Assembly: GCA_049519175.1 (NCBI GenBank)
Contig: JBEKQZ010000001.1
Span: forward strand, 17,021 to 81,020
DNA: 64,000 nucleotides
DNA from: Candidatus Levyibacteriota bacterium
GTDB taxonomy: Bacteria; Patescibacteriota; Microgenomatia; Levybacterales; UBA12049
Direction of reading: 5' to 3'
This document shows, one piece after another, positions 1-53,672 of this stretch. The notes beneath the pieces were generated by a model that saw only the letters and a program-made list of their open reading frames with translations, searched no databases and was not told the origin of the DNA. Position 1 is the first letter of the stretch; each line of letters begins with the position of its first letter. Made by a program: the position numbers and the translations under genes.

Positions 1-1050
1 TATAAAACCGCCAGCGTTTACCCGTTTCTCTTTCAGCTGGTCTTTAACCGCGGCATAAATCTTAAGCAGACGACCGACAACCGGATTAATATCCTGCTTC
101 TTGGTATTGGGGGAGGGAGTCATGACGGCCCTAATTTGACCGATACAATAATTCTTGCAAGTTTGGATCAAAAGAATGATAAAGTAACTCTTGTTTCCAT
201 TCCCAGAGATCTTTGGTTTCCGGATATTAGTCAAAAAGTTAACGCAGCCTATGCAAATGGAGAAGCACGAAAAAAAGGAGACGGGTTAATAGAAGCTGAA
301 GCCGCGATGGAAAAAGTAACAGGGCAAAATATTGATTATGGGATAAGATTAGATTTTTCCGGTTTTGTTAAGTCAGTAGATATTGTTGGGGGTTTGGATA
401 TTAATGTAGATAATACTTTTGACGATTATCAATATCCGATTGACGGAAAAGAAGATGATTCCTGCGGACATACCCCGGCAGAATTACAGTCTTTAGCTAA
501 CACTCCCGAAGATCAACTTCCTCAAGTATTTCCTTGTAGATATCTACATGTCCATTTCAATAAAGGACTAAACCATATGGACGGACAGACTGCTCTTGAA
601 TTTGTCAGATCCAGGCATGCATCTCAAGCAATTGAAGCCAGCGATTTTGCTAGAAGTAAAAGACAGGAAAAAGTAATTAAGGCATTTAAAGACAAAGTGT
701 TATCGACGCAAACTTTAATCAACCCCGGGAAATTAATTGGCCTCTATAATACTTTGCAAACTAGTATCGACACCGATATTAAACAAGATGAATTCGACGA
801 CTTTATTCGGTTGGCCGAAAAAATGAGGAATGCCAAAATCCAAAGCGTCGTAATCGACCAGGGAGACGATACCGTTGGGCGTCCTGGTCTTTTAATCAAT
901 CCACCAATGACCAGCGACTATAATTATTTATGGACGTTGATTCCAAGAACGGGAAACGGAAATTTTGCCGAAATCCAAAACTATATCTCCTGCGAGATCG
1001 TCAAGGGAAATTGTGTAGTCTCTAAATCCCCCTCAGCGGCTTTCAAATAG
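1..1050 (+). CDS. LytR-CpsA-Psr (LCP) family cell-envelope glycopolymer phosphotransferase; 5' end lies upstream of the window
   Basis: Frame 1 is open from nt 1. Translation ...NRINILLLGIGGGSHDGPNLTDTIILASLD...VSIPRDLWF... carries the LCP core motifs, so the ORF-track Met at 136 is internal. Stop at 1050. Confidence 0.8.
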   Translation, partial: YKTASVYPFLFQLVFNRGINLKQTTDNRINILLLGIGGGSHDGPNLTDTIILASLDQKNDKVTLVSIPRDLWFPDISQKVNAAYANGEARKKGDGLIEAEAAMEKVTGQNIDYGIRLDFSGFVKSVDIVGGLDINVDNTFDDYQYPIDGKEDDSCGHTPAELQSLANTPEDQLPQVFPCRYLHVHFNKGLNHMDGQTALEFVRSRHASQAIEASDFARSKRQEKVIKAFKDKVLSTQTLINPGKLIGLYNTLQTSIDTDIKQDEFDDFIRLAEKMRNAKIQSVVIDQGDDTVGRPGLLINPPMTSDYNYLWTLIPRTGNGNFAEIQNYISCEIVKGNCVVSKSPSAAFK

Positions 1051-3172
1051 TGATTTTGTAAAGTCTTGTTTGCCCGCTTTCAAAAATAATTTTGCCAAGT
1101 TTTGCAAAAGTTTGTTCATTTAGATTAGGATATTTTTCTCTCTCCAGTTCGGAAACAACCACATAGGAAACATTATATTTTTTAAGCAAACTCTTTGCGA
1201 CAGAAAGATTTTGAGTAGTATATAAAGTTTGCACGTCGGCGATTCTTGGCGCGACAATGTCATAAGTTCCCCGCCAAAGCCATTCATGGACAGACCAACC
1301 GATGACTGTCGGCAGTCCGGTGTTGGCGGAAATTCTGGCGTAATCGGTATATGAGTCTCCGCTTGCTTCCAGAATCACGGGTTGCCCCTGGATATTTGCA
1401 TTTAGCCAATTTATCAGTTTATAGTCATTCGGATACAAAGTGGAGAGATAGGTTATCCCGTCCAGACTTTTATTTTTGGTTTGCAAGTTGTTGTAGTACG
1501 AGTTAATGGCAAAAACCGGATAAAGTATTAAAACCAAAGAAAGAAGCATTAAACTTACTAGAGAAAAGGGGATTAAAATTCTCTTTCTTTTTATGCCGGA
1601 AATTAATTTTACTAAGATATATCCGGAGGATAAAGAAAGCAAGATAAACGCTTCGTAAACCAGTTTAAACATTGTATTAGCGCGGTAATAATCCGGATAG
1701 ATATCTTTAACATAAATAAATTCGGGAATTAAAATTAAGATTGTCGATAAGGAAATTAACATTAAAACGAAGATATCATTTCTGGTGAATGTGTATTTTT
1801 TCTTAAATTTAAGGAAAAATAAAAATGAAACAACAAAGAAGTAGAAAAAACCATAGAGTAGAACAAATTGCCAAAAAGGCGTTCTCTGACAATGGTTGGT
1901 TTCAAAAAGAAAAGGTCCAAGTCTGCCGATGTTAGTTAGAAATGACGGAGCGCACAAAACGCCGATGCCCGAAACAAAAGGTTTAAAGTTAAGGCTAAAA
2001 GGTAAGGAGAAAACTATAAATCCGAAAAATATGATTAAGCTTTGTTTTAACAGCTGGTAAAAGGAATGCTGCGAAAAAAGCCAACGCTGTTCTTTGTAAA
2101 AATTGGAGACAAAAAGAAGCATCAATGTCAGTAAGAAATAGATCGGACCATCCCAAGCGTTAGTCATATACATTATGGCAAAAAGAAAGGCCAGAAGAAT
2201 TAAATTCCAGGTAAATATCTTTTTATTATTCAAAAGGACAAAAATAACCAAAATTGTTAAAAGAACAAAAGGAATGTCTAGGACATGTCCGTGCAAATCG
2301 GAGACAACAAAAGAATAAATGGGGAATTCGTGAATAGTATGGTAGATAAATCTGGTAGCGTTAGGATACCAGTAGCTATTCGGAAAGCTGAAAGGTAAAA
2401 AGGGCAATTGCCAAAAAGGAATTGGGCTATCCGCGGGAGTGTATGGCTTAAAAAAAGCGTAAATGGTGGTGAGGTTTCCGCCTAAGGTTACCAAAAGCGC
2501 GGGGATTAAACCGGCAATAACAGACTTGATAGAAACATTAATCTTCGCAAACAGGTTTGTACCGATCGAAAATGCGGCGGTAAACGTCAGAGCAAAAAGA
2601 GTAGCCAACATCAAATTATAGGTAATAAAGGAAGGAAGAAAACTCAACTTTGTCAAAACGGCAGTAACCAAATGCCCAAAGAAATAATAGTTAATGGCCA
2701 AAGGGGCATACCACATATCTTTAGGAGGGAAGTAGCTACTGCGAAGAATGGAATTTAAAAATCCAAAATCCATAAACTTTTCCAGTCCATGAATGTCGGG
2801 ATTATTAGCTCTAACATATGACCAACAAATGAGTCCTGCTAAAAAGATTACTTCTTCGAGTAAAAACATTCTGACATTTTTTTTCAAGATTGGCAGCAAA
2901 TGTTTTTTCTTCATAATAAAGACGCCGTAATTTATCAAGAAAAAGATAATTACAGATAAGAACACCGAAAATTCGGAGAACGGAAGAATTTTTAGAGTCC
3001 CCATCAAGAAGACAAAATAAGAAACTATTGCAATGCCGATTATTTTTGCAAAAATATAACCTTTATCTTTAAGCTCTGCAAAAACCGAAAACGTTAATGG
3101 AAGAAATGCCGTTCCGACCAAAAAGAAAACCAAGAACCATTTTAAAACATCTGTAATATCCGAAACTGACAT
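1043..3172 (-). CDS. Large polytopic membrane protein with >12 TM helices and a C-terminal extracytoplasmic domain; DUF2298/YYY-like putative polyprenyl-phosphate-dependent glycosyltransferase
   Basis: 709 aa. N-terminal half is almost entirely hydrophobic helices. C-terminal soluble domain ...QPVILEASGDSYTDYARISANTGLPTVIGWSVHEWLWRG... resembles the DUF2298 family. 17-nt gap to the downstream GT-C gene, same strand. Confidence 0.55.
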   Translation of the reverse strand: MSVSDITDVLKWFLVFFLVGTAFLPLTFSVFAELKDKGYIFAKIIGIAIVSYFVFLMGTLKILPFSEFSVFLSVIIFFLINYGVFIMKKKHLLPILKKNVRMFLLEEVIFLAGLICWSYVRANNPDIHGLEKFMDFGFLNSILRSSYFPPKDMWYAPLAINYYFFGHLVTAVLTKLSFLPSFITYNLMLATLFALTFTAAFSIGTNLFAKINVSIKSVIAGLIPALLVTLGGNLTTIYAFFKPYTPADSPIPFWQLPFLPFSFPNSYWYPNATRFIYHTIHEFPIYSFVVSDLHGHVLDIPFVLLTILVIFVLLNNKKIFTWNLILLAFLFAIMYMTNAWDGPIYFLLTLMLLFVSNFYKEQRWLFSQHSFYQLLKQSLIIFFGFIVFSLPFSLNFKPFVSGIGVLCAPSFLTNIGRLGPFLFETNHCQRTPFWQFVLLYGFFYFFVVSFLFFLKFKKKYTFTRNDIFVLMLISLSTILILIPEFIYVKDIYPDYYRANTMFKLVYEAFILLSLSSGYILVKLISGIKRKRILIPFSLVSLMLLSLVLILYPVFAINSYYNNLQTKNKSLDGITYLSTLYPNDYKLINWLNANIQGQPVILEASGDSYTDYARISANTGLPTVIGWSVHEWLWRGTYDIVAPRIADVQTLYTTQNLSVAKSLLKKYNVSYVVVSELEREKYPNLNEQTFAKLGKIIFESGQTRLYKITI

Positions 3173-3189: not shown

Positions 3190-4848
3190 TTACTCTTTAT
3201 TTAAAATTTGTGTCAATTGCTGTGCGTTAAAATGCCCAATGTTTTTAAAAATTATAACTTTTGGATGATCGTAAACTTGGAATGTTTCCTCACTGGCGTC
3301 ATCATTAATTGTTAAACCGAAAATAGCAGGATAAGAAGTAAATTGCGCTACTTCCCGATAGCCTAATTTACCGGCAAATAATAATTTATAATATTTGCTG
3401 GTAATCGGATATTTATCGGTAAGATGAATTAAAGTTCCGTAAAGACGGCGACTATTAAAAATCAAATAACTGGAGCTACTTAAGTTTGCCGCTAAATATT
3501 CAACTTTTGCTGCATTATCGGCATCATACATTGCCAGCGACGTAATTTGGTATTGGCTAGGACTAAATTCCGCGATTGGAATCGGTAAACCATCATCCCA
3601 CTGCTCATTCAAAATTTTTGTCCCATAAGGAATAGTTTGGTAGATCCATTCGGATGCCAGGATTCTGGTCTGGGGTCTGGTATAAATTGAAAAAAATGCC
3701 AGGGCCCAAACTACAGTGGCCGTAACCGTGCCGAAAATTAATAAGTTTCCCAATAATTTCAGTTTCAATCTTATTCTCATTAGTAAAATTGCCGCTGAAA
3801 CCAAAAGGAACGGAATTATGGGAATCATATAGCGAACAAATTTGGTATGCCAAGAGCCGACGTAGAGAAAATAAATCAAAGGAAGCACTAAAAATACTAA
3901 AAGTTGTTTATCGCGCTTTTGAAGCGCTTCAAAGATAACAAAAACAAAACCGAAAATACAAAAAATTGCCGCTAGGCCGATTTGCCAGAAGAAATTATAA
4001 ATTTGAAAAAGATAGGGAATAGTATGGTCAAACTGCAAAGTATAAACGACCGGCAAAGAGCCGGTGGCAACTCCGGATTCATAGACCATTGATTCCATAA
4101 ATTTGCCAAAGTCAAGAAAGGTAAAGGGAGAAAAGATTGCAAAGACTGTAAAAGAGATTAACAAAAAGGCAATAATGTGAAGAATGATTTTTTTGAATTC
4201 ATGTTTTTTCCCAATCGTTGTCAGTAAATAAGCAAGGATTGGCATGACAATAAAAATTATCGCCGATGTTTTTGAAGCAATTCCTATCCCAAAAATAATG
4301 CCCAAAATTAATGTTATCAACCAACGGGATTTCTCTAAAAACAAAATTGAAAGAAGACAGAGTAAAACTCCAATCAAAGTGATTAAGCTTTCGGTGACTC
4401 CGAAATGAGCAGTTTGGATAGAAGTGACGGTAAAAGCGTATAAAATAATTGACAAGAAAGCAGTTTTCTTATCCGAAATTTTTTTGGCAAGAAAATATAA
4501 GGGAATTATTGTCAGCGTTGAAAATAGAGCGGAAAAAAATCGACCAATAAGATTAATGTTGGCCCAATTAGTTGTCCAACCGGCGTTTTTGGTTATAAAA
4601 GAAAGCGAATCTCCCGCCAGACGATAGAGATAAATGGAAAAACCGCCATAAGCAAAAAAATGCGGATTTAATTGCGAAAAAAAATGTATCTGTGAAACTG
4701 CGTTGGCGATATTTCTTTCGTCCGGATGGAAATAATTTCCCATGTCCCAGTTCAAATTATAAAAACGGAAAATTCCCGCCAAAAATGTTAAAGCAAGGAA
4801 GAAAAATAAGGTATTAAATTTTTTATCCAGGATTATTCTTTTAAACAT
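3190..4848 (-). CDS. GT-C fold membrane glycosyltransferase (ArnT/PMT-like, family 39/83 type)
   Basis: 552 aa, multi-TM. FHPDE acidic motif in the first extracytoplasmic loop. C-terminal soluble domain. Overlaps the upstream gene by 8 nt. Confidence 0.6.
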   Translation of the reverse strand: MFKRIILDKKFNTLFFFLALTFLAGIFRFYNLNWDMGNYFHPDERNIANAVSQIHFFSQLNPHFFAYGGFSIYLYRLAGDSLSFITKNAGWTTNWANINLIGRFFSALFSTLTIIPLYFLAKKISDKKTAFLSIILYAFTVTSIQTAHFGVTESLITLIGVLLCLLSILFLEKSRWLITLILGIIFGIGIASKTSAIIFIVMPILAYLLTTIGKKHEFKKIILHIIAFLLISFTVFAIFSPFTFLDFGKFMESMVYESGVATGSLPVVYTLQFDHTIPYLFQIYNFFWQIGLAAIFCIFGFVFVIFEALQKRDKQLLVFLVLPLIYFLYVGSWHTKFVRYMIPIIPFLLVSAAILLMRIRLKLKLLGNLLIFGTVTATVVWALAFFSIYTRPQTRILASEWIYQTIPYGTKILNEQWDDGLPIPIAEFSPSQYQITSLAMYDADNAAKVEYLAANLSSSSYLIFNSRRLYGTLIHLTDKYPITSKYYKLLFAGKLGYREVAQFTSYPAIFGLTINDDASEETFQVYDHPKVIIFKNIGHFNAQQLTQILNKE

Positions 4849-6127
4849 CTGTAAAAATTTCCCTCACAACTTTTTGTCCGTATTCAACAGCGTAATTTGT
4901 ACCTCTGTCCCAAGGATAAACTTGTTCCATGTTGGCCAAAAAAACATTTTTCATGGGAGTTCTAAATGGAGGAACTAACTTCGAATAATTGGTTAGAATA
5001 ATTGACTGGGCAAAAGGTGTCTTAAAAAGAGAATAGTCTATTAAGTTTTTTTTGTAGTTGGGATTCATTTTTAACAGGAATGGATGAAATAGTTTTAGAG
5101 TTTCCTCTTTTGTCATGGAGAAACGTTTTGAATCTTGGGGTAAATAATTGCCAAGATAGAGAAGGGACTCATTGTTATAATTTTTTTTGTCCATAAAATT
5201 TGTGTGTTCAACGACAGCCATAATGGGATTATTTGGGTCACAGATATTAAGCCAATATGTGTTGTCTGTTAAAAAAGGTTTGGTAAGTCTTAAAATCAGA
5301 TTTGTGGCTCCGAGACTTTTTAAATTTCCCAGACTTTTCCTATAATCTTTTGGAAGACTTGGCGCTATCTGCAAGAAGATAGTAGAGGGAACGGTGACGA
5401 TAACTTTATCGAACAATCCTTTTTTAGTTTTCCCGTTTTTGTTTTTAATTGTTAATAATATTTTGTCATCTTCTTCAAGTTCGGTAATTTCCGTCTCAAG
5501 CAAAACTTTACCGCCCTTTTTTTCTATTTCGTTTGTTATTTTTTTTGCAAAGTTTAAAAAACCTCCCTCGGGGTAAGCAAGAGTTGGGGTTCTTTTTATA
5601 ATTCTGGCCCAAAACCAAGCAAGAGAAATATTATTAGAATAAGGGCCGAATTTATTTTTAAAAAGAGGTTCCCAGATCATCCGGTATCCTTTTTCCCCCA
5701 TAGCTTTAGGTAAAAAACTTGCGGCATTAATCTTTTCAAGGGGTTTCCAAATAGGATTATAACGAAGAAATCCAACTGCAAGCCCCATACGCATGCGTTC
5801 TATTAAAGAAAGCTTAGGGAACAAAAGCACGCTCTTTGGAGAATCAAACTGAAAACTTTTTCCATTTACATATACAGAAGTTTTAGGCCGTTTAATTAAT
5901 ACATTTTGTCCAACTGCTTTAGCCAAATTCAAGATGAACTTATCATTTGTAAACCAATGATGATAGTGTTGTTCTAAGTTCCAATCCCATCCTGACTCTT
6001 TAAACCCGAGCACAAGACCACCGGGTATTTTTTCTTTCTCAAATACAATAACTTCATGGTCTTTTTTTAAGAGTTCAAGAGTAGCCGAGAGGCCGGTAAA
6101 GCCGGCGCCGATTATTGCAATTTTCAT
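4841..6127 (-). CDS. FAD-dependent flavoenzyme of the UDP-galactopyranose mutase (Glf/UGM) family
   Basis: N-terminal Rossmann motif MKIAIIGAGFTGL...EKEKIPGG. ...HHWFTNDKFILNL... matches the UGM HIFHTNDKYIW block, ...AVVEHTNF... matches RIIEHKHF, and there is a C-terminal Y/W-rich block. 4-nt overlaps on both sides. Confidence 0.5.
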   Translation of the reverse strand: MKIAIIGAGFTGLSATLELLKKDHEVIVFEKEKIPGGLVLGFKESGWDWNLEQHYHHWFTNDKFILNLAKAVGQNVLIKRPKTSVYVNGKSFQFDSPKSVLLFPKLSLIERMRMGLAVGFLRYNPIWKPLEKINAASFLPKAMGEKGYRMIWEPLFKNKFGPYSNNISLAWFWARIIKRTPTLAYPEGGFLNFAKKITNEIEKKGGKVLLETEITELEEDDKILLTIKNKNGKTKKGLFDKVIVTVPSTIFLQIAPSLPKDYRKSLGNLKSLGATNLILRLTKPFLTDNTYWLNICDPNNPIMAVVEHTNFMDKKNYNNESLLYLGNYLPQDSKRFSMTKEETLKLFHPFLLKMNPNYKKNLIDYSLFKTPFAQSIILTNYSKLVPPFRTPMKNVFLANMEQVYPWDRGTNYAVEYGQKVVREIFTDV

Positions 6128-7548
6128 AGAGCGGAAATGCCGCCGTGGGACAGAAGAAAAAGAAGTCCACCTGTTAATGTGACTATAACGCCGACAATTC
6201 CAACTGTGATTATAGAAGGATTCCCGGTTGGGGGCAATAGTTTACCGGTTGGGCTAATTATAATCCCCCCTTTAGTTTCTGTTTGAGCAGGCGAAATCGT
6301 TGGCGTCGTGGTCTTAAATGGCGCGGAAGTTACTGTTGGCGTTACGGTTGGAGACAAAATTACCGTTGGCGTGACCTTTGGCGTTAGTGTTGGACTTGGT
6401 GTTAAGATAACGCTTGGTGTTGGTGTCACGGATGGCGCTGGCGGATTAGTTTGTTGCCCCGCGGCATAAACCACAAAGGACTGAGTAATAGTTTGTAAAA
6501 TTCCAGAAGCATTTTTGGTAGTAATGGCAATGGTATGATTCCCGGGCGTTAGCGGAGTGGTTGGCCGATAACTCCAATCTCCGTTGCTGTCGGTGGTGAC
6601 ACTGGTTTCTACCGGAGTGTCCGAGTGGATGACAATGTCAACATTTTGTTCGGGTAAGCCGGTGCCTTTAAATAAAGGTTGTTGGTCGGTAAAGCTCTGG
6701 TTTTCTTTGGGCGTCAGTATCTCAGGAGCTGGTGATTGCGCCGAAGCAGTACTTTCAAATGACGGAAAACTCTCCAAACTTACAGGAACAGTAATTGGGG
6801 ACTGGCCGGTTGTAAAATCGTAGTTTTTAGAAAGCGTAATTGTCGGTACAGGATGAATTTGGCTAAATGACAGCGAAGCATTGGATGAAAGTGAATTGCC
6901 TATCGCCAGAATTTTTACGCCGGCATCTTGGGGGAAAGCATAGTAAGTAGAATTATCACCGGTTCTTAAAGAATTAAGCGGTAAAATGTAGCTCCCGTCA
7001 GATTTAACTAAAGTCGAAATTACTTGTGCGCCATCCATAGTGACATACACTAGCGCTTCGCTTGGCGCTGTTCCGTCGGGAAGAATTATGTTGCCCGTTA
7101 TCGGTGCCTGGCCCGGCGGATTTGCTAAGGCCGGACCCGTCGTAACCGTAAAAGGCTGACCGTTGTTTGAGTAGCTATCTTGTCCGCTGGTAATTGTAAA
7201 AAAGTATTGCGTCTGTTGGGACAAACGCTGGACGGTAATGTTATGAATATTATAATTTGCCAAATTGCCGCTTTGTTGGTCCCTGTCATCTAATGCCGAT
7301 TGTCCAAGACTCTGGTCTTTTCCGTAATTTAGAGAACCCGGCACCTGAGTATTTGTTGAATAAGAAACGGTAAAAGAAGTGTCGGTAATGTTAGTGATAC
7401 GGACATCGTTGGGCTGGTTGGAAAGGCTGGCATTTGATTTAAAGAGCGTACTTTGATTAGCCAAAAAAGTGGTTACGCCAACGCCAATAACGATAATAAG
7501 AATACCTAAAATGGTCGGAATTTTTTTGTTCCAAAAACTTTCTCTCAT
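6124..7548 (-). CDS. Secreted multi-domain surface protein (FN3-like, carboxypeptidase-regulatory-like and Ig-like domains, Pro/Thr linker) ending in an LPPTG sortase-type sorting signal plus TM segment
   Basis: N-terminal signal anchor. ITNITDTSFTVSYST (FN3-like). ITGNIILPDGTAPSEALVYVTMDG...SDGSYILPL (CarboxypepD_reg-like). TPTPSVILTPSPTLTPKVTPT linker. C-terminus ...KLLPPTGNPSIITVGIVGVIVTLTGGLLFLLSHGGISAL. Confidence 0.75.
   Translation of the reverse strand: MRESFWNKKIPTILGILIIVIGVGVTTFLANQSTLFKSNASLSNQPNDVRITNITDTSFTVSYSTNTQVPGSLNYGKDQSLGQSALDDRDQQSGNLANYNIHNITVQRLSQQTQYFFTITSGQDSYSNNGQPFTVTTGPALANPPGQAPITGNIILPDGTAPSEALVYVTMDGAQVISTLVKSDGSYILPLNSLRTGDNSTYYAFPQDAGVKILAIGNSLSSNASLSFSQIHPVPTITLSKNYDFTTGQSPITVPVSLESFPSFESTASAQSPAPEILTPKENQSFTDQQPLFKGTGLPEQNVDIVIHSDTPVETSVTTDSNGDWSYRPTTPLTPGNHTIAITTKNASGILQTITQSFVVYAAGQQTNPPAPSVTPTPSVILTPSPTLTPKVTPTVILSPTVTPTVTSAPFKTTTPTISPAQTETKGGIIISPTGKLLPPTGNPSIITVGIVGVIVTLTGGLLFLLSHGGISAL
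6290..6450 (-). repeat. Imperfect short tandem repeats (GTTGGCGT-like units) encoding the Pro/Thr linker of the LPPTG surface protein (approximate bounds)
   Basis: Reiterated gttggcgt(t/g)ac / ggtgttgg units on the plus strand, encoding TPT(V/L)-type repeats on the minus strand. Confidence 0.5.
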
Positions 7549-7886
7549 GGTGTTAAGCTCCCTTCGGTTGTTGCTTGTAGATTGCTTGTCGAATTTCCAC
7601 TTGGAACAGGTGTTGGTGTAACGATTACCGGACTGGCGGACGGTGAAGCGGGAACAGTAACATTTTGCACTGGGACACTTAATTCATAAATTGGCGAAAC
7701 TTTTTCTCTGTTTTTTAAGCTATCAATAACACCGGTGTCAAAGTTTGGCGTTATCGGTTCAATCTGCACGCTTAAAGGGACAGAAATGGTCGAGGTAATA
7801 ATATTATGATAAATACTAAAGCCAATCCAAAGAATGGCAAAAATAAACAATGGGACAAGAATTAATAAAATATCATTTCGTTTCAT
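7545..7886 (-). CDS. Small single-TM protein with a Pro/Ser/Thr-rich tail, in the pilN-pilO operon (possible PilP-like accessory)
   Basis: 113 aa. N-terminal TM LLILVPLFIFAILWIGFSI. ATGA-type 4-nt overlap with the downstream LPPTG protein gene, and directly abuts pilO. Confidence 0.5.
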   Translation of the reverse strand: MKRNDILLILVPLFIFAILWIGFSIYHNIITSTISVPLSVQIEPITPNFDTGVIDSLKNREKVSPIYELSVPVQNVTVPASPSASPVIVTPTPVPSGNSTSNLQATTEGSLTP

Positions 7887-7887
7887 T

Positions 7888-8487
7888 TTATTGTTTAAAG
7901 AAAACTGTGCCGTTAAGACTTAATTGCAAATTGCCATTTTCGGTTGACAAAATTATCGCTTTTAAAGCCACCACTCTTTGAAAATTGGCGATTTGACTCA
8001 AAAAATTGAGAATATTTGGATAGGTTCCTGTAGCGGTGATCGTAAAATCAAAAGAAGATTGTTTTTGAGAGGATGATTGTAAAAGGGTAACTTCCGAGAT
8101 TTGGAAACTGGTAAGTGTCAAAGATGTGCTGTTGGCGATAGATTGCGCTTCCGCCACGAAAAGTGGGATTTGTGTTGTGGTGGGGACTGCGTCATTAACA
8201 ATTGGGAGATCGGGCGAAAGATTAGTATATTGCTGTTGCAAGATAGCTAGGTCGTTTATTTTTTGCTGCAGCTTTTGCTGGACAAAATTACTGTCATCAA
8301 TTTGTTTTTGCAGATTAGCAATGGTCGAAAAAGTCGGATTAATGGCAAAAAGACCAAGTATAATGGCCGTAACTAGAGTTAGAACAATGGTGATATATTT
8401 TTGCGTCTTTTCCTGTTTAAGATCCGGAATTAACGCCAAATATTTTTCATATTGTTCTTTTTTTATGGCTTTAATTTGCAGACGCAT
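7888..8487 (-). CDS. pilO: Type IV pilus assembly protein PilO-like
   Basis: 199 aa. Short cytoplasmic N-terminus, one TM (ITIVLTLVTAIILGLFAI), a Q-rich coiled coil, then a ferredoxin-like periplasmic region. Overlaps pilN by 17 nt. Confidence 0.55.
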   Translation of the reverse strand: MRLQIKAIKKEQYEKYLALIPDLKQEKTQKYITIVLTLVTAIILGLFAINPTFSTIANLQKQIDDSNFVQQKLQQKINDLAILQQQYTNLSPDLPIVNDAVPTTTQIPLFVAEAQSIANSTSLTLTSFQISEVTLLQSSSQKQSSFDFTITATGTYPNILNFLSQIANFQRVVALKAIILSTENGNLQLSLNGTVFFKQ

Positions 8488-9031
8488 TTATTCCTCCTTG
8501 TCCTTTAAGATTAGCTGTAATTCCAACGGTAATAGTCGCTTTGGCGGTATCGTTTTGGATTTTGTCTAGACTGACACTATCAATGGCAGGATAGGCTTTT
8601 AATTTATCGATAAAATCAGAAAGGGCAGTAACCGAATTAACGGTGGCGGCGATTTGCGCTTGAGTTGGAGATAAATCAAGGGTTGTATAGGTAACTCCGC
8701 TTGGTGTCAAAGCAACAATGTCCTTAAATACTTTCAAGTTTTGCGTGGAAGCTTTGGAAACGGAAGAAATTAACGCTAACCGGTCTTGTAAATTTCGGTA
8801 TTTGCTTTCGCTAGCGCTTTGATAGGCAACAATTGCCTGCTCTTGTTTTACTTTTGTGCGTAAATCCTGGAGCTGGTTGTCAAGCGAAAAACGGTATAAA
8901 AAAGCGCCAAGCGCCACCAGTTCGACAAGAATTACTAGGGCCCGGCCAATAGTTAATACCCAGGAAACAATCAAATCTAGCGTTTTATTCTTATTTTCCA
9001 ATAAATTAATAGAGGCAGAAAACTTCGCCAT
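8471..9031 (-). CDS. pilN: Type IV pilus assembly protein PilN
   Basis: 186 aa. N-terminal SINLLE (the conserved PilM-binding INLLP-type motif), a single TM, then a coiled coil. Confidence 0.65.
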   Translation of the reverse strand: MAKFSASINLLENKNKTLDLIVSWVLTIGRALVILVELVALGAFLYRFSLDNQLQDLRTKVKQEQAIVAYQSASESKYRNLQDRLALISSVSKASTQNLKVFKDIVALTPSGVTYTTLDLSPTQAQIAATVNSVTALSDFIDKLKAYPAIDSVSLDKIQNDTAKATITVGITANLKGQGGINASAN

Positions 9032-9040
9032 ACTAACTTT

Positions 9041-9069
9041 AGTCTATTGGTTTTTGAGGCTTTTGTCAA
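9041..9069 (-). promoter_or_regulatory. Sigma70-type promoter for the pilN-pilO-surface-glycan operon (TTGACA-17-TAGACT on the minus strand)
   Basis: On the minus strand: cTTGACAaaagcctcaaaaaccaaTAGACTaaagttagt ATG(pilN). Lies between the rpsT stop and the pilN start. Confidence 0.45.
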
Positions 9070-11105: not shown

Positions 11106-12851
11106 ATGTCTTTTAGTAACATCCGTAATTTTGCCATCATCGCTCACGTTGACCATGGAAAATCGACGTTGGCCGACCGCTTTTTGGAAATCACCAACAC
11201 AATTCAAAAGGATAAATTAAAAGAACAATTCTTGGATCAAAACCCGATTTCTAGAGAACGTGGCATCACCATTAAATTGGCACCGGTTCGGATGAAATAT
11301 GCAGTTGATGGACAGGAATATATCCTAAATTTAATTGACACTCCTGGGCACATGGATTTTTCCTACGAAGTCTCCCGGACTCTGGCGGCTTGCGAAGGAG
11401 CAATCCTTTTGGTTGATGCCACCAAGGGAATTCAGGCCCAGACGGTAGCGCATTTCAACGCGGCCAAGAAAGAAAACTTAACCATTATTCCGGCAATTAA
11501 TAAAATCGACCTTCCCACCGCCAACACGGAAGAAGTCACTAAAGATTTAATTGAGACTTTCGGGTTTAAACAGGAAGAAATTTATTATGTTTCGGCTAAA
11601 ACCGGAGAAAACACCAGACAGCTTTTGCAGGCGGTGGTGAAAAAAATTCCAGCTCCTAAAGTAAATGACAACGCGCCTCTGCGCGGCTTAGTGTTTGACG
11701 CGGTTTTCGATGAACACCGAGGCGTAGTTATTTTTACCAAATTATTTGATGGTAGTGTTAAAAAACAAGATAAACTGGAATTTATCCAGAATAAAACTAA
11801 AGTTGACGTGTCGGAAGTAGGATTTTTCTCGCCCTTTTTAATGTCCAAAGAGGAATTAACCGCCGGAGAAATCGGCTATATTGTCACCGGCTTAAAAGAT
11901 ATCCGCAGAACCCGGGTCGGAGACACAATCACAGCCCAAAATTTAAAAGGCAAAATGCAAAACTTAAATGTTCAGCCGTTGCCTGGATACGCAACGCCAA
12001 AGCCAATGGTCTTTTTTGGCGTTTACCCGCAAACTTCCAACGAATATGTTCACTTACGGGAAGCGCTGAATAAGCTATCACTCAATGACGGCTCATTAAC
12101 TATTTCCAATGAGTATTCGGCGTTTTTGGGCAGTGGCTTTCGGGTGGGATTTTTGGGACTTTTACACGCGGAAATTGTCAAAGAAAGATTAACCAAGGAA
12201 GAAGGCGTGGAGCCGATTTTAACGATGCCCAAAGTTTTATATGAAGAAAAAGATGGAAAGATGCTGGAGCCCTACATGATCTTAACGATTTTTGTTCCTG
12301 CCAGTTTTGTCGGCGCAGTGATGACAGTGGCACAAAATAAAAAAGGCACTCTTTTAGGCATCTCTTATCATAAAAACAACGCTATTTTGCAATATGAGAT
12401 GCCTTACTCGATGTTTATCCGCGGACTTTCGCCGGATTTAAAAAGCGCCACCCAAGGTTTTGCCAGTCTAGATTATGAAATCACCGGTTACAAAGAGGCG
12501 AGGTTGGTAAAAATGGACGTTCTTATTAACGGTAGCCCGATTGATGTTTTGTCAGAGCTGGTTTACGAAGATGAAATGAGTTCTGTCGCCCGCGAAAAAA
12601 CGGAAAAATTAAAAGAACATCTGCCAAAACAACAATTTAAGCAAATCATTCAGGCGGTGGTTGGGGCAAAAATCTTGGCCAGAACGGAAATTTCTCCTTA
12701 CCGCAAAGATGTGTTAGCCAAAATGTCCGGCGGAGACAGAACTCGGAAAGATAAATTACTGGAGGCGCAGAAAAAAGGAAAGAAAAAGATGGTTAATGTT
12801 TCAAAAGTACAGATTCCCCAGAAGGCATTGCTGTCGATGCTCAGAAGCTAG
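11106..12851 (+). CDS. lepA: Elongation factor 4 (LepA)
   Basis: NFAIIAHVDHGKSTLADRFLE G-domain. 581 aa, with the LepA-specific C-terminal domain. Confidence 0.95.
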   Translation: MSFSNIRNFAIIAHVDHGKSTLADRFLEITNTIQKDKLKEQFLDQNPISRERGITIKLAPVRMKYAVDGQEYILNLIDTPGHMDFSYEVSRTLAACEGAILLVDATKGIQAQTVAHFNAAKKENLTIIPAINKIDLPTANTEEVTKDLIETFGFKQEEIYYVSAKTGENTRQLLQAVVKKIPAPKVNDNAPLRGLVFDAVFDEHRGVVIFTKLFDGSVKKQDKLEFIQNKTKVDVSEVGFFSPFLMSKEELTAGEIGYIVTGLKDIRRTRVGDTITAQNLKGKMQNLNVQPLPGYATPKPMVFFGVYPQTSNEYVHLREALNKLSLNDGSLTISNEYSAFLGSGFRVGFLGLLHAEIVKERLTKEEGVEPILTMPKVLYEEKDGKMLEPYMILTIFVPASFVGAVMTVAQNKKGTLLGISYHKNNAILQYEMPYSMFIRGLSPDLKSATQGFASLDYEITGYKEARLVKMDVLINGSPIDVLSELVYEDEMSSVAREKTEKLKEHLPKQQFKQIIQAVVGAKILARTEISPYRKDVLAKMSGGDRTRKDKLLEAQKKGKKKMVNVSKVQIPQKALLSMLRS

Positions 12852-13993
12852 AGAGCGAATAAAAGAACAGCTCCGATTAGTGTGATAACAGCTCCGATAG
12901 TCCCAACTTGCACAAGATTAGTCGGACCGGTTGGCGGAAGTGGACTGACCTGCGCAATTACCGGAGTAGGTGTCGGTGTAGGCGTTGCGGTCGGAGCAGC
13001 CACAACGGTTGTAGTTCCTCCACCGGCGGTAATAGTGACAGAGCAATTAGCAGAACTACTCACGGCATTGTTGGCGTCGGTTAAGGTTGCGGTAGCAGTA
13101 TATGTGCCGGCGGTTGTATAGGAATGAGATTGTAAAACGCTGACGGAATTTGTACCTATTCCACCGGAGCCTGTAATATCTTGAGATTGACTGTCACCAA
13201 AATTAAAAGTAACTTTACTAATAGTGGAATTGCTACTTGAACCGGTAACGGTTAAATTCGTAGCCAAAGGCACTGCCCCGGAAGTGTTGTCGGCTGTCAG
13301 ACTTGAACAGGTTGGGGCGGCGCTAGACTGTGTCGAGGTCGGTGTCGGCGTTAAGGTCTCCGTAGGCGTCAACGTTTCTGTCGGCGTAGTTGTCACATTT
13401 GTGCCGGCAATTATCGTTAAAGCGGCTGGATTCGCGCTGGCCAAAACATTTTCGCTGGACTGGTCACTTGTGCCCAAAGATAAGACCTGTGTATCGTTGC
13501 CAAAGGTAATTTGAGTTGGACCAGAATCTGTCGTCGCAATCGCTTTAAAAGTAATAGTACCAATAGTCGTTGTCTGTTGCACTACTTGAGAGGGATCCCC
13601 GCCGGCAGAAAGAGTAATGGAAATTGTTCCGTTTCCGTAGGTTGGCCCCTGTAAAATATCCGGTAAAACATGCGTTGGGTTGACGGTAGTATTGGTGACG
13701 ATAAGACCCGCTCCGTCCGTTGCCAATTTTGTGCTGTCATACATGATTGTAAATTTGACGTAAGAAACCAGATTAGAGGTGGTAGCGGTAGCCGGATCAA
13801 CTTGAATGTTGAGATTGACATCGTCGCCAACGTGAATTGGCGCTTGCGATGCCGGAAGAATGCTGATCGTCGTCGCTGCCACGGCCGAGCTCTTAGTTTT
13901 TTGTTGTTGTTGGACCAAGAAGACGGTGACCGGAATTGCAACGAGCAAAACTACAATAAAGCCAATTAAAAGAATTTTCTTCATTGAAGACAT
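12848..13993 (-). CDS. Secreted surface protein (cohesin-like domain, Pro/Thr linker, PKD domain) ending in an LPPTG sorting signal plus TM segment
   Basis: Signal anchor MSSMKKILLIGFIVVLLVAIPV. Cohesin-like N-domain. TPTETLTPTETLTPTPTS linker. PKD-like ...HSYTTAGTYTATATLTDANNAV.... C-terminus ...VSPLPPTGPTNLVQVGTIGAVITLIGAVLLFAL. Convergent 4-nt overlap with lepA. Confidence 0.7.
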   Translation of the reverse strand: MSSMKKILLIGFIVVLLVAIPVTVFLVQQQQKTKSSAVAATTISILPASQAPIHVGDDVNLNIQVDPATATTSNLVSYVKFTIMYDSTKLATDGAGLIVTNTTVNPTHVLPDILQGPTYGNGTISITLSAGGDPSQVVQQTTTIGTITFKAIATTDSGPTQITFGNDTQVLSLGTSDQSSENVLASANPAALTIIAGTNVTTTPTETLTPTETLTPTPTSTQSSAAPTCSSLTADNTSGAVPLATNLTVTGSSSNSTISKVTFNFGDSQSQDITGSGGIGTNSVSVLQSHSYTTAGTYTATATLTDANNAVSSSANCSVTITAGGGTTTVVAAPTATPTPTPTPVIAQVSPLPPTGPTNLVQVGTIGAVITLIGAVLLFAL

Positions 13994-14046: not shown

Positions 14047-14102
14047 TTGACACTAAATCCTATTTGATGTATAAATGAGCAGTCACTTTAAGAGAGTGAT
14101 AT
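14047..14102 (+). promoter_or_regulatory. groES-groEL promoter (TTGACA-17-TATAAA) followed immediately by a CIRCE-like 9-9-9 inverted repeat (probable HrcA operator)
   Basis: TTGACA 14047-14052 and TATAAA 14070-14075. TGAGCAGTC-actttaaga-GAGTGATAT at 14076-14102, compared with the CIRCE consensus TTAGCACTC-N9-GAGTGCTAA (7/9 per arm). Confidence 0.55.
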
Positions 14103-14113
14103 TTTTTGAGCTT

Positions 14114-16089
<1,976 letters not shown>

Positions 16090-16990: not shown

Positions 16991-17938
16991 TTAACTGGGG
17001 TTGATGAAGTAAACTAAAGCAATTACCAAAATAGTCCAAATTACAACAGTGACCAATAATGGTCGGTCGGATAAAAGCACTTTCTCCGGACTTTCACCCT
17101 CATTTTTTTCATAAATATCCTGTAAATAACGCATTAGCCCATAAACGACCGGAATAATAGTTATCATCAACCATTTTCTTTGGAAAAAAGCCGGCAAGAA
17201 ATCCGGCATTAAAACGCCGATTGAAAGTTTAAACCCGGTCGGATTTTCCAAAAAAGTAAACAGCGCATAAGAAATAAAAGTCGAGGTGGCAAAAATAGAA
17301 GCATAAACATCCAACAGCCTTTCGGAATAATGAGATAAAGATTGTCTGGTAGCGGCAAGATCAAAATTTTTGGTGCCCGATAAAAGGGTGAGTTCGCTTC
17401 TTCGTTTACCAATTGCCAAGAAAAGCGAAATCGAAATTGTCGTTAACAAAAGCCAGACCGAAATATGGTAACCGCTGGCAAATTCTCCGGCATAAACCCG
17501 CAAAATATAGCCGGCGGCAATTAAAAGGATGTCAATAACCGCCACACTTTTTAAGAATGAGGAGTACAAAAATTGCATGACAAGATAGACTATTACTAAA
17601 ATGAAAAACGCGGGAGTAATCACTGCTGCCACGGAAAGAGAAACTATTATCAAGAAAGCGGCGATGATGATTGCCAGAAGAACCGGAACGTCCCCGTGAG
17701 CGATTGGTCGAAATCTTTTAAACGGGTGCAGTTTATCTTTTTTCGCATCAAAAATATCATTAATGACATAAGTGGCGCTGGATAATCCGCAAAACACAAA
17801 AAAGCCCAAGATTACTTTGGGCAGAACTGTTGGATCAAAAAGCTCGCCGGTAAAAGTTATGGCGGCAAAGATAGCCAAATTTTTAATCCATTGTCTTGGC
17901 CGCAAGAGCCGAAATATGTTATATGCTAGTTTCATCAT
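16991..17938 (-). CDS. UbiA-family prenyl-phosphate phosphoribosyltransferase (decaprenyl-phosphate 5-phosphoribosyltransferase-like, Rv3806c type)
   Basis: 315 aa, 8-9 TM. LRPRQWIKNLAIFAAITFTGELFDP...YVINDIFDAKKDKLHPFKRFRPIAHGDV (NDxxDxxxD motif plus the downstream RPIAxG block typical of DPPR synthase homologues). Confidence 0.6.
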   Translation of the reverse strand: MMKLAYNIFRLLRPRQWIKNLAIFAAITFTGELFDPTVLPKVILGFFVFCGLSSATYVINDIFDAKKDKLHPFKRFRPIAHGDVPVLLAIIIAAFLIIVSLSVAAVITPAFFILVIVYLVMQFLYSSFLKSVAVIDILLIAAGYILRVYAGEFASGYHISVWLLLTTISISLFLAIGKRRSELTLLSGTKNFDLAATRQSLSHYSERLLDVYASIFATSTFISYALFTFLENPTGFKLSIGVLMPDFLPAFFQRKWLMITIIPVVYGLMRYLQDIYEKNEGESPEKVLLSDRPLLVTVVIWTILVIALVYFINPS

Positions 17939-18995: not shown

Positions 18996-19348
18996 TAACT
19001 AATTTGCAGGATGATTTTAATAATAAAAAGAAAATTCATAAATGCCAAAATAAGCGTCACTGCGGCTACCATTCTGGCGATTAACGGACTTTTATTATAA
19101 ACAATTGAGGTAAAAATAAGGTTAAAAATAAATATCAAACCAAAGATAATGGTCGGAATAAAAATTCCCGGTGTTGCCGTAAGCCGGTCATTGCCCCAGG
19201 GAAGTTGGTTAAAGATGGGAATAAATGGAGGAAGGTTATGGTAACTTAGCAATATATATACAACAGTAAAAAGTGTTAACAGAAAACTAATCAAAAACCC
19301 ACGTAGTGCCAATTTATCGGAAGCGATATTATTAATAAAGTTTTTCAT
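18995..19348 (-). CDS. Small 3-4 TM membrane protein (possible GtrA-like flippase accessory)
   Basis: 117 aa, hydrophobic. Sits between the WecA-like and GT-C genes with 1-nt and 17-nt overlaps. Confidence 0.45.
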   Translation of the reverse strand: MKNFINNIASDKLALRGFLISFLLTLFTVVYILLSYHNLPPFIPIFNQLPWGNDRLTATPGIFIPTIIFGLIFIFNLIFTSIVYNKSPLIARMVAAVTLILAFMNFLFIIKIILQIS

Positions 19349-50589: not shown

Positions 50590-51321
50590 TCATATTTTTT
50601 CCACTTTCGTTTTAACCACCAATCTTTTCCAAGTTGTGCCGGGCGGTGTGCAAGTGACCAGAGTTAAATAACTATCGTCAAAGCTTTGTTCCAAAATAGA
50701 AGTGTTCTCCGGGTCAACGACGGTAATATTTTGCACTTGATATTTGTAAGTAGATTTACCGACATTAACGATAATTTCATCGCCGGGGGATAACTCATAC
50801 AGATAAGTAAAAACGGTTTTGTAACTTTTGGCATCGTAGAGTTGAGGTAGGGTGGAATGTCCAAAAACTACCGCATTACCTTTCTCGCCGGGAATAGCGG
50901 TCCCACCATAATTTACCAAATGACTGGCTAAATCATTATCAACCGTTGATACGACAGCATTGACTATGTTTAATTTAGGGATTGATAAGGAGTAAGTTGT
51001 TACTTGCTGTTTTGTATTCGATTGCCTTTTAAAATTAGGAAACCAATTATCAGCATTATTATAGTCAACGCCGCTAAGCGTGTTTGAGGCTTCGGCCAAA
51101 AGAGTTTGAAAAGTTGAGCTATTTACAATAGTGCTTTGCGGGATCGGGGAGCTAATATTTTGACTGGCAAATACCGGCGCAAAATAGATTTGCCAAGAAA
51201 TTAACGGTAGAAAAACGTAAGCCGTGATTACTAGTCCTATCGCAAAAATTCCTAACCCGATTAAGCGGGTGAATTTCTTCTTTCTATTTCCTTGGGCTTT
51301 TTTGTAATAAACTTTTGGCAT
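50590..51321 (-). CDS. Sortase-family transpeptidase
   Basis: N-terminal TM (LIGLGIFAIGLVITAYVFLPL), catalytic His in ...NAVVFGHSTLP..., catalytic Cys in ...YLTLVTCTPPGT..., and a downstream Arg (WKRLVV). 1-nt overlap with the upstream gene. Confidence 0.75.
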   Translation of the reverse strand: MPKVYYKKAQGNRKKKFTRLIGLGIFAIGLVITAYVFLPLISWQIYFAPVFASQNISSPIPQSTIVNSSTFQTLLAEASNTLSGVDYNNADNWFPNFKRQSNTKQQVTTYSLSIPKLNIVNAVVSTVDNDLASHLVNYGGTAIPGEKGNAVVFGHSTLPQLYDAKSYKTVFTYLYELSPGDEIIVNVGKSTYKYQVQNITVVDPENTSILEQSFDDSYLTLVTCTPPGTTWKRLVVKTKVEKI

Positions 51322-53672
51322 TATTTGGCAGTGATTTGGATTGTGATATTTTTAGGATTACCCGGCAGGTTGGTGGATAAGAAAGGAAGGCTTGGTTTTA
51401 GCTCAATGCCGACGTTTTCAACTTGAGAAAGACTGGAGAGTATGCTTCTGGCTTTGGTTAGCGAAGTCCCGGCAATTTGTTTGGCTATTTGGTTATTATC
51501 GAATTTGGGCAAAAGATTAGCACTAATTGCTAAATCTGCGGAGACGTCCCCGTTGTCGGCAACCGTAATATTTTTGGCGTTAACCGAAAGATTGTTTTTG
51601 CTAAGTTGAGTATTGCCACTGCTAAAAAGCGAATTGGCAACGGATAACATATCCGAAGCGTTGTAAGTTAAGCTTTGAAAATCGACCGTACCTTTTAGCG
51701 TTACACTGCTGGCCTGGTCCCCGGCATTTTTATCGAAGCTTTTATTGCTAATTGTTTCGCTGGTAAAACCGGACAATAAGACATTATCTCCCGTAACTTT
51801 GCTTTGCAGGTCGTTTTTAGCCTTGCTTTCAAGCTGTTTAGGCAATCCGTCTAAAAGTTTTTGAATGTCGTCTTTAGAGACAACCGTGACGGTTTTTTTG
51901 GCTCCGCCGGAAAACGCATTATCGTTTTTGGCGGCCACATCCCCAAGTGAATAATCGCCGACGCTGAATTTAGTTCCGGACGGTAAATTATAGTTTTGGC
52001 CGATATCGGAAGCCGTTATATTCACCGTGGCAGTCCCGGGGGTTTGATTAGAAGCATCTCCGGACGCCGAAGCCACTGAGGTGTCGCTGTCCAGAGTAAA
52101 ACTTAAATTATCTGGAGAAGTAATAGTTGTTCCGGAGGGCAAATCGATTGGGTTACTGGTGGCGTTAAAAATGGTTACGGAACCCTTAGCGGCAGTGCCG
52201 ATATCTTTTGTGCCACTGGAATTAACAGACATACTGCCGTCTTCGGAAACGGAAACCGGTTGCGAAGCAATAACACTGCTGGCAATATCCGTGGCTTTAT
52301 TTGAAGAAAAAGTAACCGAGGTAGTTTTCTGGTCGGATTTAGGATTAACCAAAAGCGTTACGGTTGCTTGGGCGTTGAAAATTAAGAAGAATGCTCCCAG
52401 CAAAAGTAGAATCACAATTGCGGCAGGAATAATTAGCACGGCATTTCGTTTTGATTTTCCGGCCGGATTGAATTTTTTGAAGAAGTTTATTATTGATACT
52501 CTAGCTTTAGCAGCTGTTAGGAGAGCAGTTCGTACCAATCCTGTTTTTGTTTCTTCTTCGATTTTTTCTTCTTCGGGAATTTCATTGAATTCCTCTTTAA
52601 TTACTTCGTCCGGCACTTTTTTCATTACCGGTTCGGGCTCCGGTTTTGCGCTTTTAGCGATATCGACTCCTTCGGCAAAGCCGAAATAAGCCAGTGAGTC
52701 GTCGGGGCTAATATAATCAGGTTTGTTGGTTGCGTTGACTGTTGCTCCTTCACTAGTTCCTACCGATTCGCCCGTTGCTTTTTCCCTTTCCTTGGCTTCC
52801 GACGCTGCAACCTTAGCGTTTATTTCCTCAAATTCTTTCGGTGTTTGGACCGGTTCGAAATTTGAAAATTCCTCAGGAGAGATCTTTTTTGGTTGTTCAT
52901 CGAAATCCACATTTTGCGAATCATAGATTAGTTGGGCGCCCATTTGAGTAGCGGCGCCTAAAAGCATGGCCTTAATTGATGCATCTTTGGGTAGGGTGGT
53001 AATTTGCGGCAGGTGCAGAAACGGTAAGCTTTTGCTCCATGGATGCCCGATAAACTCTTGGGTTATTTCTTCGTCATCAGCTCCGTAGATAACCACCCGG
53101 GATGGCATTGCTTCAGTAGCCTGAAAATGTTTTAGAAGCGTGTCAACCGTAAATGGAGCAGATTCGTGGATTTCCGAAGATTTGGTCTCGATAATTTTAC
53201 CGCTTTTAACCAAGGAAACGGTAATAAATTTTGTTCCCATATCCACCAAAACTGCGGTAACTGGTGCGCCTTCCTCCTGCTGTAAGAGATTAATAACGCT
53301 TTCGCTGGAAACCAAAAAACCAATCGGCTCAAGCGCCAATTCGTCGCTAGCTTTTTTTAGTTTTTCCAAATACTCCTTTTTAATTTTATTGTCTTCAATC
53401 CAATTTTCTTTTAATCCGAAGATGGTTTTGTGGCTTTCGACATTATCCGGTAGGACATTTTCCGCCTGGCTAATCGATTTATCCAAAACCTCCAGAAATT
53501 GTTCGGTCGTAGCGTCTTCAATCGTATTGTCAAAATCTTCTTCCCCATGTCCCAGGTATTTGATGACATTGCCCGATTTGGCAAATAAGATTGAGGTGGC
53601 TCGTTCATTCCTTAGCACCAGAGCCATATAGTATTCCGGTTTAACCTTACTGTCTAAAAAAGGCAACTTCAT
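51321..53672 (-). CDS. Bitopic fusion protein: N-terminal PilM/FtsA-like actin-fold domain, one TM, and a large Ser/Thr-rich extracellular domain
   Basis: ...YYMALVLRNERATSILFAKSG... and ...AVLVDMGTKFITVSLVKSGKI... (actin-like phosphate-1/-2-type motifs). TM AVLIIPAAIVILLLLGAFFLIF at about aa 400. C-terminal about 350 aa has low complexity with beta-rich repeats and no LPXTG. Confidence 0.5.
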   Translation of the reverse strand: MKLPFLDSKVKPEYYMALVLRNERATSILFAKSGNVIKYLGHGEEDFDNTIEDATTEQFLEVLDKSISQAENVLPDNVESHKTIFGLKENWIEDNKIKKEYLEKLKKASDELALEPIGFLVSSESVINLLQQEEGAPVTAVLVDMGTKFITVSLVKSGKIIETKSSEIHESAPFTVDTLLKHFQATEAMPSRVVIYGADDEEITQEFIGHPWSKSLPFLHLPQITTLPKDASIKAMLLGAATQMGAQLIYDSQNVDFDEQPKKISPEEFSNFEPVQTPKEFEEINAKVAASEAKEREKATGESVGTSEGATVNATNKPDYISPDDSLAYFGFAEGVDIAKSAKPEPEPVMKKVPDEVIKEEFNEIPEEEKIEEETKTGLVRTALLTAAKARVSIINFFKKFNPAGKSKRNAVLIIPAAIVILLLLGAFFLIFNAQATVTLLVNPKSDQKTTSVTFSSNKATDIASSVIASQPVSVSEDGSMSVNSSGTKDIGTAAKGSVTIFNATSNPIDLPSGTTITSPDNLSFTLDSDTSVASASGDASNQTPGTATVNITASDIGQNYNLPSGTKFSVGDYSLGDVAAKNDNAFSGGAKKTVTVVSKDDIQKLLDGLPKQLESKAKNDLQSKVTGDNVLLSGFTSETISNKSFDKNAGDQASSVTLKGTVDFQSLTYNASDMLSVANSLFSSGNTQLSKNNLSVNAKNITVADNGDVSADLAISANLLPKFDNNQIAKQIAGTSLTKARSILSSLSQVENVGIELKPSLPFLSTNLPGNPKNITIQITAK

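Follow-up and report, generated by a model that had tools for sequence, protein, structure and literature searches.

The window, that is, the whole stretch of 64,000 nucleotides (nt) analysed here, belongs to contig JBEKQZ010000001.1 of a Candidatus Levyibacteriota bacterium. On its minus strand, it harbours a transcription unit of seven open reading frames (ORFs) in a row, which starts after a 50-nt spacer downstream of rpsT and opens with genes for the pilus alignment proteins PilN and PilO. They are followed by genes for a membrane protein of 113 amino acids (aa) and a surface protein of 474 aa with a sortase-type end, and then by genes for a flavoenzyme and two membrane enzymes of GT-C type. 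The head of the unit comprises the following features:

9041..9069, minus strand: sigma-70-type promoter, TTGACA-17-TAGACT
8471..9031, minus strand: pilN, 186 aa; PF05137 at 26.7 bits against a cut-off of 22.8, E 5.9e-6
7888..8487, minus strand: pilO, 199 aa; PF04350 at 47.6 bits against a cut-off of 22, E 2.4e-12
7545..7886, minus strand: clade-specific bitopic membrane protein, 113 aa, directly after pilO in every locus
6124..7548, minus strand: 474-aa surface protein with FN3-like, Big_6-like and Big_13 Ig-like domains and LPPTG
6223..6237, minus strand: LPPTG pentapeptide, residues 438-442 of the 474-aa protein, followed by about 22 hydrophobic residues

Every junction in the seven-gene unit overlaps or spans at most 17 nt. 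The pilN and pilO genes overlap by 17 nt, pilO meets the gene for the 113-aa protein in the sequence TAAAATG, and ATGA overlaps join the 113-aa gene to the 474-aa gene and the latter to the flavoenzyme gene, the second of these also in most related loci. An 8-nt overlap then links the flavoenzyme gene to the PMT_2 glycosyltransferase gene, from which the last gene, DUF2298, is separated by a 17-nt gap. These junctions bear out the claim of the first-pass annotation of this DNA that pilN and pilO are co-transcribed and translationally coupled with the LPPTG-ended protein and the glycan enzymes. The same annotation described the pilus genes as fused to the surface protein; they do share an operon with it, but no protein fusion exists.

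Identity of PilN and PilO, and their promoter

The 199-aa protein is certain to be PilO. Its cytoplasmic N-terminus, which is conserved, leads into a single membrane helix, a coiled coil and a core built of two alpha-beta-beta units, and all the PilO relatives listed match PF04350; the NCBI name of the relatives is "type 4a pilus biogenesis protein PilO". When a profile built from 16 relatives was compared with solved structures, it matched PilO of M. xanthus (3jc8) with E 2.9e-12 and PilO of P. aeruginosa with E 1.3e-6. The AlphaFold2 model of the core (residues 105-199) reaches a predicted local distance difference test score (pLDDT) of about 78 and shows the element order H-E-E-H-E-E, whereas the full-length model scores 57, with low confidence in the N-terminal half. 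A Foldseek search with this model, proposed as a check by the first-pass annotation, returned four matches at E <= 1e-3, all of them to PilO structures (3jc8_O, 2rjz, 5uvr). Weaker sequence matches were to GspM (NF040576, E 1.1e-5) and DivIC (E 0.016). The topology-based naming of this protein as PilO was therefore correct by family profile, by comparison with solved structures and by its model.

The first 30 residues of PilO are unusually conserved, including K15, Y16, L17, P21, K24, E26, T28 and K30.

The 186-aa protein, which begins MAKFSASINLLE, is taken to be PilN, on weaker evidence than that for PilO. Its N-terminus is cytoplasmic and is followed by a single membrane helix, then by a coiled coil and, at the C-terminus, the PilN domain. 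PF05137 is matched by eight of 12 orthologues (best E 8.4e-9), and no other family is matched. The sequence S-I-N-L-L occupies residues 7-11, without the Pro that follows in classical PilN; an alignment of 12 orthologues shows no exchange at I8, N9 or L10, and all 21 sequences listed contain these three residues. In classical systems, a conserved N-terminal motif of PilN is bound by a pocket of PilM (PMC5805733). A 12-orthologue PilN profile found no solved PilN among PDB sequences at E <= 10, only chance matches, and a profile-profile comparison of PilN with PilO gave no significant match. The name given to this protein from its N-terminus nevertheless stands, the Pfam cut-off being passed and the I-N-L being invariant.

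The related loci compared comprised 20 GTDB species representatives, three other contigs and two loci chosen for their distance. All 25 of them retain the promoter, two with a single mismatch in the -35 box. In 23 of the 25, the pilN start codon (ATG or GTG) lies 9 nt past the -10 box, while the flanking sequence diverges; in the window, the pilN ATG likewise stands 9 nt past the -10 hexamer and has no Shine-Dalgarno sequence. A plain scan for consensus promoters finds 28 sites in this AT-rich region, no more than chance would give (22.2 +/- 4.9 expected). The site is nevertheless credible, because it is retained across 25 loci whose flanks have diverged. The conserved motif and its conserved 9-nt distance to the start codon thus argue for a real promoter, and also for an mRNA of the pilN operon that is probably leaderless. 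The promoter named by the first-pass annotation was confirmed in this way.

The annotation placed the promoter right after rpsT. The position is correct, but the adjacency is incidental, because in two relatives (L027 and L029) 1-2 kb of unrelated genes lie between rpsT and pilN while the promoter is retained. Co-transcription of rpsT with pilN was dropped on the same grounds.

The four-gene core and its surface proteins

The order pilN-pilO-small gene-large gene is constant wherever a locus extends far enough to reveal it, even where PilO identity falls to 39%. Seventeen of the 20 GTDB species loci extend to a full-length 474-aa gene. The small and large genes are joined by an ATGA overlap in 21 of 23 loci, and the gap between pilO and the small gene measures 0-6 nt. 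Upstream, rpsT and murJ precede the core in every locus long enough to show it, with the exception of L012. Downstream, the content varies: L013 has neither the flavoenzyme nor the PMT_2 gene, and L035 has no flavoenzyme gene. The constant unit is therefore the core of four genes, since those beyond the large protein differ between loci.

An all-against-all profile search gathered 8435 representatives of PilO-like clusters, 243 of them below 1e-30. Every close relative that could be named belongs to Candidatus Levybacteria (Microgenomates) of the candidate phyla radiation (CPR). No lineage with an intermediate gene arrangement was found, and the most divergent loci fetched carry the same module.

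All four core proteins have a cytoplasmic N-terminus and a single-pass topology. The conservation of the short cytoplasmic N-termini of both PilO and the 474-aa protein suggests that these segments have partners in the cytoplasm.

The 113-aa protein has one N-terminal helix. Its residues 1-70 are conserved, with W20, F23, T33, I45, F49, R60 and P65 invariant, and its tail is variable and rich in Ser, Thr and Pro. No match to this family was found in Pfam, NCBIfam or PDB.

The 474-aa protein starts with the motif FWNK(K/R)IPT and a membrane helix, continues with the FN3-like, Big_6-like and Big_13 domains and a Pro/Thr-rich stalk, and closes with LPPTG and a C-terminal membrane helix. Its C-terminus reads ...KLLPPTGNPSIITVGIVGVIVTLTGGLLFLLSHGGISAL. 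Both Big_13 and the FN3-like domain occur in 15 of 15 orthologues. The first 20 residues, namely the FWNK+IPT motif and the start of the helix (7489-7548), rank with the best-conserved parts of the protein, at a mean identity of 0.68. This high conservation suggests that the N-terminal helix is a retained membrane anchor rather than a signal peptide that is discarded. If a sortase also acted on the other end, the protein would form a bridge between membrane and wall.

The window around the operon

The remaining genes of the unit, its upstream neighbour and a second surface protein are listed below:

4841..6127, minus strand: FAD-dependent oxidoreductase of amine-oxidase fold (the flavoenzyme), 428 aa; Pfam Amino_oxidase E 1.1e-22, NCBIfam PRK07233 388.9 bits
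3190..4848, minus strand: GT-C-type membrane glycosyltransferase PMT_2, 552 aa; Pfam PF13231 E 1.6e-16
1043..3172, minus strand: DUF2298 / Chlor_Arch_YYY polytopic membrane protein, 709 aa; Pfam E 2.2e-100, TIGR03662 517 bits
9082..9381, minus strand: rpsT (ribosomal protein S20), upstream neighbour outside the unit; Pfam Ribosomal_S20p E 2.2e-17
12848..13993, minus strand: second LPPTG-ended surface protein, 381 aa, with a PKD domain; its motif drift parallels that of the 474-aa protein

The operon is flanked by murJ and a gene for a wall-polymer ligase of the LytR-CpsA-Psr (LCP) family. Plus-strand ORFs within the operon, such as 8126..8569, are antisense shadows of well-supported genes. No tRNA or Rfam family was found in the window, and the idea of an RNA element was dropped. 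About 8 kb from the operon lies a second envelope-glycan block (16991-22315, minus strand), which encodes a UbiA prenyltransferase, a GT4 enzyme (MraY/WecA-like), a 117-aa membrane protein, a PMT-type GT-C enzyme and a GT2 enzyme. The remaining genes of the window are housekeeping or envelope genes.

The approximately 9 kb to the left of the window encode, among others, LCP, TIM, a LAGLIDADG ORF, UvrD, FemAB, a signal peptidase and Ni-SOD. The LAGLIDADG ORF, 270 aa long and with a faint match to this family, sits between the TIM and UvrD genes (19311-20123 in L001, 13996-14808 in L037) and is absent from two near-identical contigs (L002 and L003). The GroES ORF (14075-14464, plus strand) is 129 aa long, compared with 97-105 aa in relatives, and its Pfam match begins at residue 18, so that the true start probably lies further downstream.

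In the 474-aa and 381-aa proteins, the sorting motif drifts in parallel across Levybacteria (loci L013-L032), from LPPTG in near relatives to PxxG or PGPG in deeper ones. This parallel drift hints at co-evolution with the specificity of the sortase.

Interpretation and comparison with known systems

The reading favoured here, with a probability of about 0.5, is that PilN and PilO are ordinary alignment proteins of a type IVa pilus whose genes lie away from those for the other parts of the machine, and that the 113-aa and 474-aa proteins encoded with them are accessory partners. PilN and PilO would heterodimerise in the membrane, and the cytoplasmic I-N-L of PilN would dock a PilM-type actin-like protein, whose gene, like those for PilB, PilC, PilD and the pilins, would lie in another part of the genome. 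The 113-aa and 474-aa proteins would be made in fixed proportion with PilN and PilO and may be their accessory partners at the outer face. Held by its N-terminal helix, the 474-aa protein may be linked to the wall by sortase at its C-terminus, thereby tying the platform to the peptidoglycan; such a strut would fill the role of PilP and PilQ in double-membrane bacteria. Sugars are probably added to the Pro/Thr-rich stalks, or else to other polymers of the envelope, by the GT-C enzymes encoded downstream.

A number of observations weigh against this reading. A physical link of PilN and PilO to the 113-aa and 474-aa proteins is supported by synteny and codon overlap only, and the location between murJ and the LCP gene fits a general envelope operon. 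A Pfam scan of all window ORFs of at least 110 aa detected no PilB, PilC, PilD, PilT, PilM, PilQ or pilin, and no pilus gene was found in the approximately 9 kb to the left of the window; together, these stretches cover about 73 kb of the source contig (ENA ERZ27250144 k141_64433, 579,907 bp). The sorting signal is also imperfect. The tail behind the hydrophobic segment of the 474-aa protein, SHGGISAL, has no Lys or Arg and hence no basic character, although most orthologues carry an Arg or Lys there. The anchor profiles PF00746 and TIGR01167 do not match the window protein at E <= 1, and PF00746 matches one of 15 orthologues (E 0.0065). Furthermore, LPPTG is confined to the nearer relatives and is replaced in deeper ones by LSPTG, LAPTG, PAPGD, PSVGS, AKPGS or TSPGS, so that the module cannot depend on attachment to the wall. 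The C-terminus of the 474-aa protein is thus only half canonical as a sortase signal.

The lack of other pilus genes agrees with the first-pass annotation, which had stated that no pilM, pilQ or pilin lies nearby; this holds across the 64 kb. Also, no prepilin motif of the G-F-T-L-I-E type occurs in any frame of the window. Directly upstream of pilN, where a pilM might have been located, stands rpsT or, in two relatives, unrelated genes; the inserts of L027 and L029 encode HAD, NUDIX and DUF362-like proteins, and the idea of a pilM hidden there was dropped. The proteins encoded downstream of pilO gave no match to PilP or a secretin. As an argument, however, the absence of pilus neighbours is weak, because the genes for type IVa pili are typically scattered (PMC4471445), almost all CPR bacteria possess PilB, PilC, PilM and PilT (PMC6744442, PMC11623550), and a Microgenomates locus is known for which PilM, but neither PilN nor PilO, is listed. 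In the latter, a closed genome, PilA, PilD, PilB, PilT, PilC and PilM are found at one locus, and PilN/PilO are not listed (PMC7143001). More broadly, CPR bacteria widely carry PilB, PilT, PilC, PilM, PilN, PilO and PilD and lack PilQ, a sortase is near-ubiquitous in Microgenomates (PMC6744442), and homologues of pilB, pilT, pilM and pilC occur in most of 56 Patescibacteria phyla (PMC11623550).

Only one trait of the locus is unusual: the invariant pairing of PilN and PilO, by way of overlapping codons, with the 113-aa and 474-aa proteins. It fits accessory partners at the outer face and, equally, a compact envelope operon whose products have no physical link. The latter possibility, a mosaic operon, keeps an appreciable chance, even if it is on balance unlikely. 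PilN and PilO would then serve a pilus encoded elsewhere, and the 113-aa protein, the 474-aa protein and the glycan enzymes would form an unrelated surface-glycoprotein module that merely shares their promoter. The flanking murJ and LCP genes and the further glycosyltransferases adjoining the unit favour this view, as does the build of the 474-aa protein, which, with its FN3/Ig domains and Pro/Thr-rich stalk, is that of an ordinary stalked adhesin. A similar LPPTG protein is encoded 5 kb away without any pilus genes. In addition, conserved gene order by itself is weak evidence of function in CPR bacteria, because their genomes are compact and highly syntenic. On the other hand, the core and its junctions, overlapping or 0-6 nt wide, survive deep divergence while later genes come and go, and the N-terminal motif and helix of the 474-aa protein are conserved to an extent that would not be expected of a disposable signal peptide.

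The idea of accessory partners can be extended to a more specific proposal, which is doubtful. According to it, PilN, PilO, the 113-aa protein and a doubly anchored 474-aa protein would constitute one extracytoplasmic complex that replaces the PilP-PilQ link. As a glycosylated strut attached by sortase, this complex would anchor the pilus platform to the peptidoglycan and lead the fibre across the wall. If true, this would apply to the single-membrane, walled cell of CPR bacteria.

The first-pass annotation had hinted at yet another explanation, namely that a PilM/N/O-like scaffold has been repurposed for sortase-dependent surface display, independently of pili, with the actin-like domain of a 783-aa protein as the PilN-binding equivalent of PilM. 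Two further features of the window are concerned:

51321..53672, minus strand: 783-aa protein with a minimal actin fold of FtsA/PilM type (residues 10-250), a linker, a membrane helix (411-432) and an ectodomain
50590..51321, minus strand: sortase, 243 aa, with His, TLVTC and Arg; Pfam Sortase E 2.1e-25, TIGR01076 77.3 bits

The model of the 783-aa protein (mean pLDDT 78.8) shows a confident actin-like domain of 240 residues, a disordered acidic linker, one helix and a confident, beta-rich ectodomain of about 350 residues that resembles baseplate J and a GlxA barrel. The actin-like fold is nearest to the FtsA/PilM branch. By sequence, the protein matches Baseplate_J, and FtsA at E 0.18 over 37 residues. 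Its N-terminal domain gave no match to PilM or PilM_2 profiles at E <= 10, and no solved relative of this domain was found by sequence. The PilN-binding groove of PilM is formed by the 1C subdomain, as seen in the Thermus PilM:PilN structure. This subdomain is absent from the 783-aa protein, in whose model a single helix (56-71) stands at the insertion site; the alignment spans 217 residues, against target lengths of 333-370 residues. The Asp-x-Gly motif of phosphate-1 is missing as well. The PilM-like domain that had been claimed for this protein thus holds at the level of the modelled fold; it has no PilM sequence signal, neither the 1C subdomain nor the phosphate-1 motif, and it is tethered to the membrane. 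Because of its own membrane helix and large ectodomain, the protein is not a PilM in the family sense.

The family of the 783-aa protein has at least 750 relatives, named "baseplate J/gp47 family protein" by NCBI.

The repurposing of a PilM/N/O-like scaffold has a slim chance. It draws on the lack of any other pilus gene within 64 kb and on the translational coupling of the 783-aa gene to the sortase gene, the start of which overlaps the 783-aa stop (TAATG) in a pairing conserved at 50% identity. Moreover, the topology of the 783-aa protein recalls that of GspL, which in type II secretion is the counterpart of PilM and PilN together (PMC4471445). Besides the missing PilM features, however, the 783-aa gene lies 42 kb from pilN and pilO in another operon, and the protein is tied to PilN and PilO by nothing beyond the shared genome. 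Deeper relatives keep the whole module yet lose LPPTG, and CPR genomes almost always have pili (PMC6744442). The repurposing claim thus found no support: it was built on the absence of pilus genes nearby, and its sortase motif is not conserved across the clade.

That both small proteins are unrelated membrane coiled-coil proteins, for example division proteins, is scarcely credible: the failure of the PilN profile to find a solved PilN, the weak DivIC match and the pLDDT of the full-length PilO model would allow it, but both proteins exceed the curated Pfam cut-offs, the PilO profile and model significantly match only PilO structures, and the pair is adjacent and in canonical order.

It is poorly understood how type IV pili pass through the thick wall of bacteria with a single membrane and how they are braced against it, and pili are regarded as central to the way in which CPR bacteria live attached to their hosts. 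The clade-wide coupling yields two concrete candidates for wall-side accessory proteins, the 113-aa and the 474-aa protein. If the pairing is one of gene order only, the locus becomes a matter of routine annotation, and public pipelines already name PilO. The operon offers a lead, if a modest one, to new accessory parts of the pilus in bacteria with one membrane; it does not represent a new kind of system.

Several known systems share features with the locus. Like the LPXTG substrates of Gram-positive bacteria, the 474-aa protein combines LPPTG and a hydrophobic helix with Ig-like domains and a Pro/Thr-rich stalk that could span the wall, and a TLVTC sortase is encoded in the genome. It differs from them in that this copy has neither a basic tail nor a match to an anchor hidden Markov model, in its anchor-like N-terminal helix and in the degenerate motif of deeper relatives. 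The likeness to type II secretion concerns the 783-aa protein, with the cytoplasmic actin-like domain, single helix and outer domain of GspL, and PilO, with its weak match to the GspM family NF040576. Nonetheless, the 783-aa protein carries an outer domain that resembles baseplate J and a GlxA barrel rather than a ferredoxin, and no other Gsp gene is present.

The pilus loci of monoderm and CPR bacteria (Clostridium, Streptococcus; loci 1 and 2 of Saccharibacteria TM7x) likewise belong to cells with a single membrane, have no secretin and encode PilN and PilO. There, pilM-pilN-pilO form part of a pilus locus with pilB/pilC and pilins (PMC11623550, PMC4471445), whereas here pilN-pilO stand alone among non-pilus neighbours.

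The closest comparison is with the PilM-PilN-PilO-PilP-PilQ subcomplex of type IVa pili, as in Pseudomonas, Myxococcus and Thermus. Here, no pilM lies upstream, there is no homology to PilP or a secretin, and the 113-aa protein has no HR domain; the large protein is FN3/Ig-like with a sortase-type end, and glycan enzymes belong to the operon. In common with this subcomplex are the order pilN->pilO, the bitopic nature of both products, the I-N-L-L of PilN and the core fold of PilO, which matches that of solved PilO. Finally, the succession of pilN, pilO, a gene for a small envelope protein and one for a large, beta-rich envelope protein mirrors the order pilN-pilO-pilP-pilQ.

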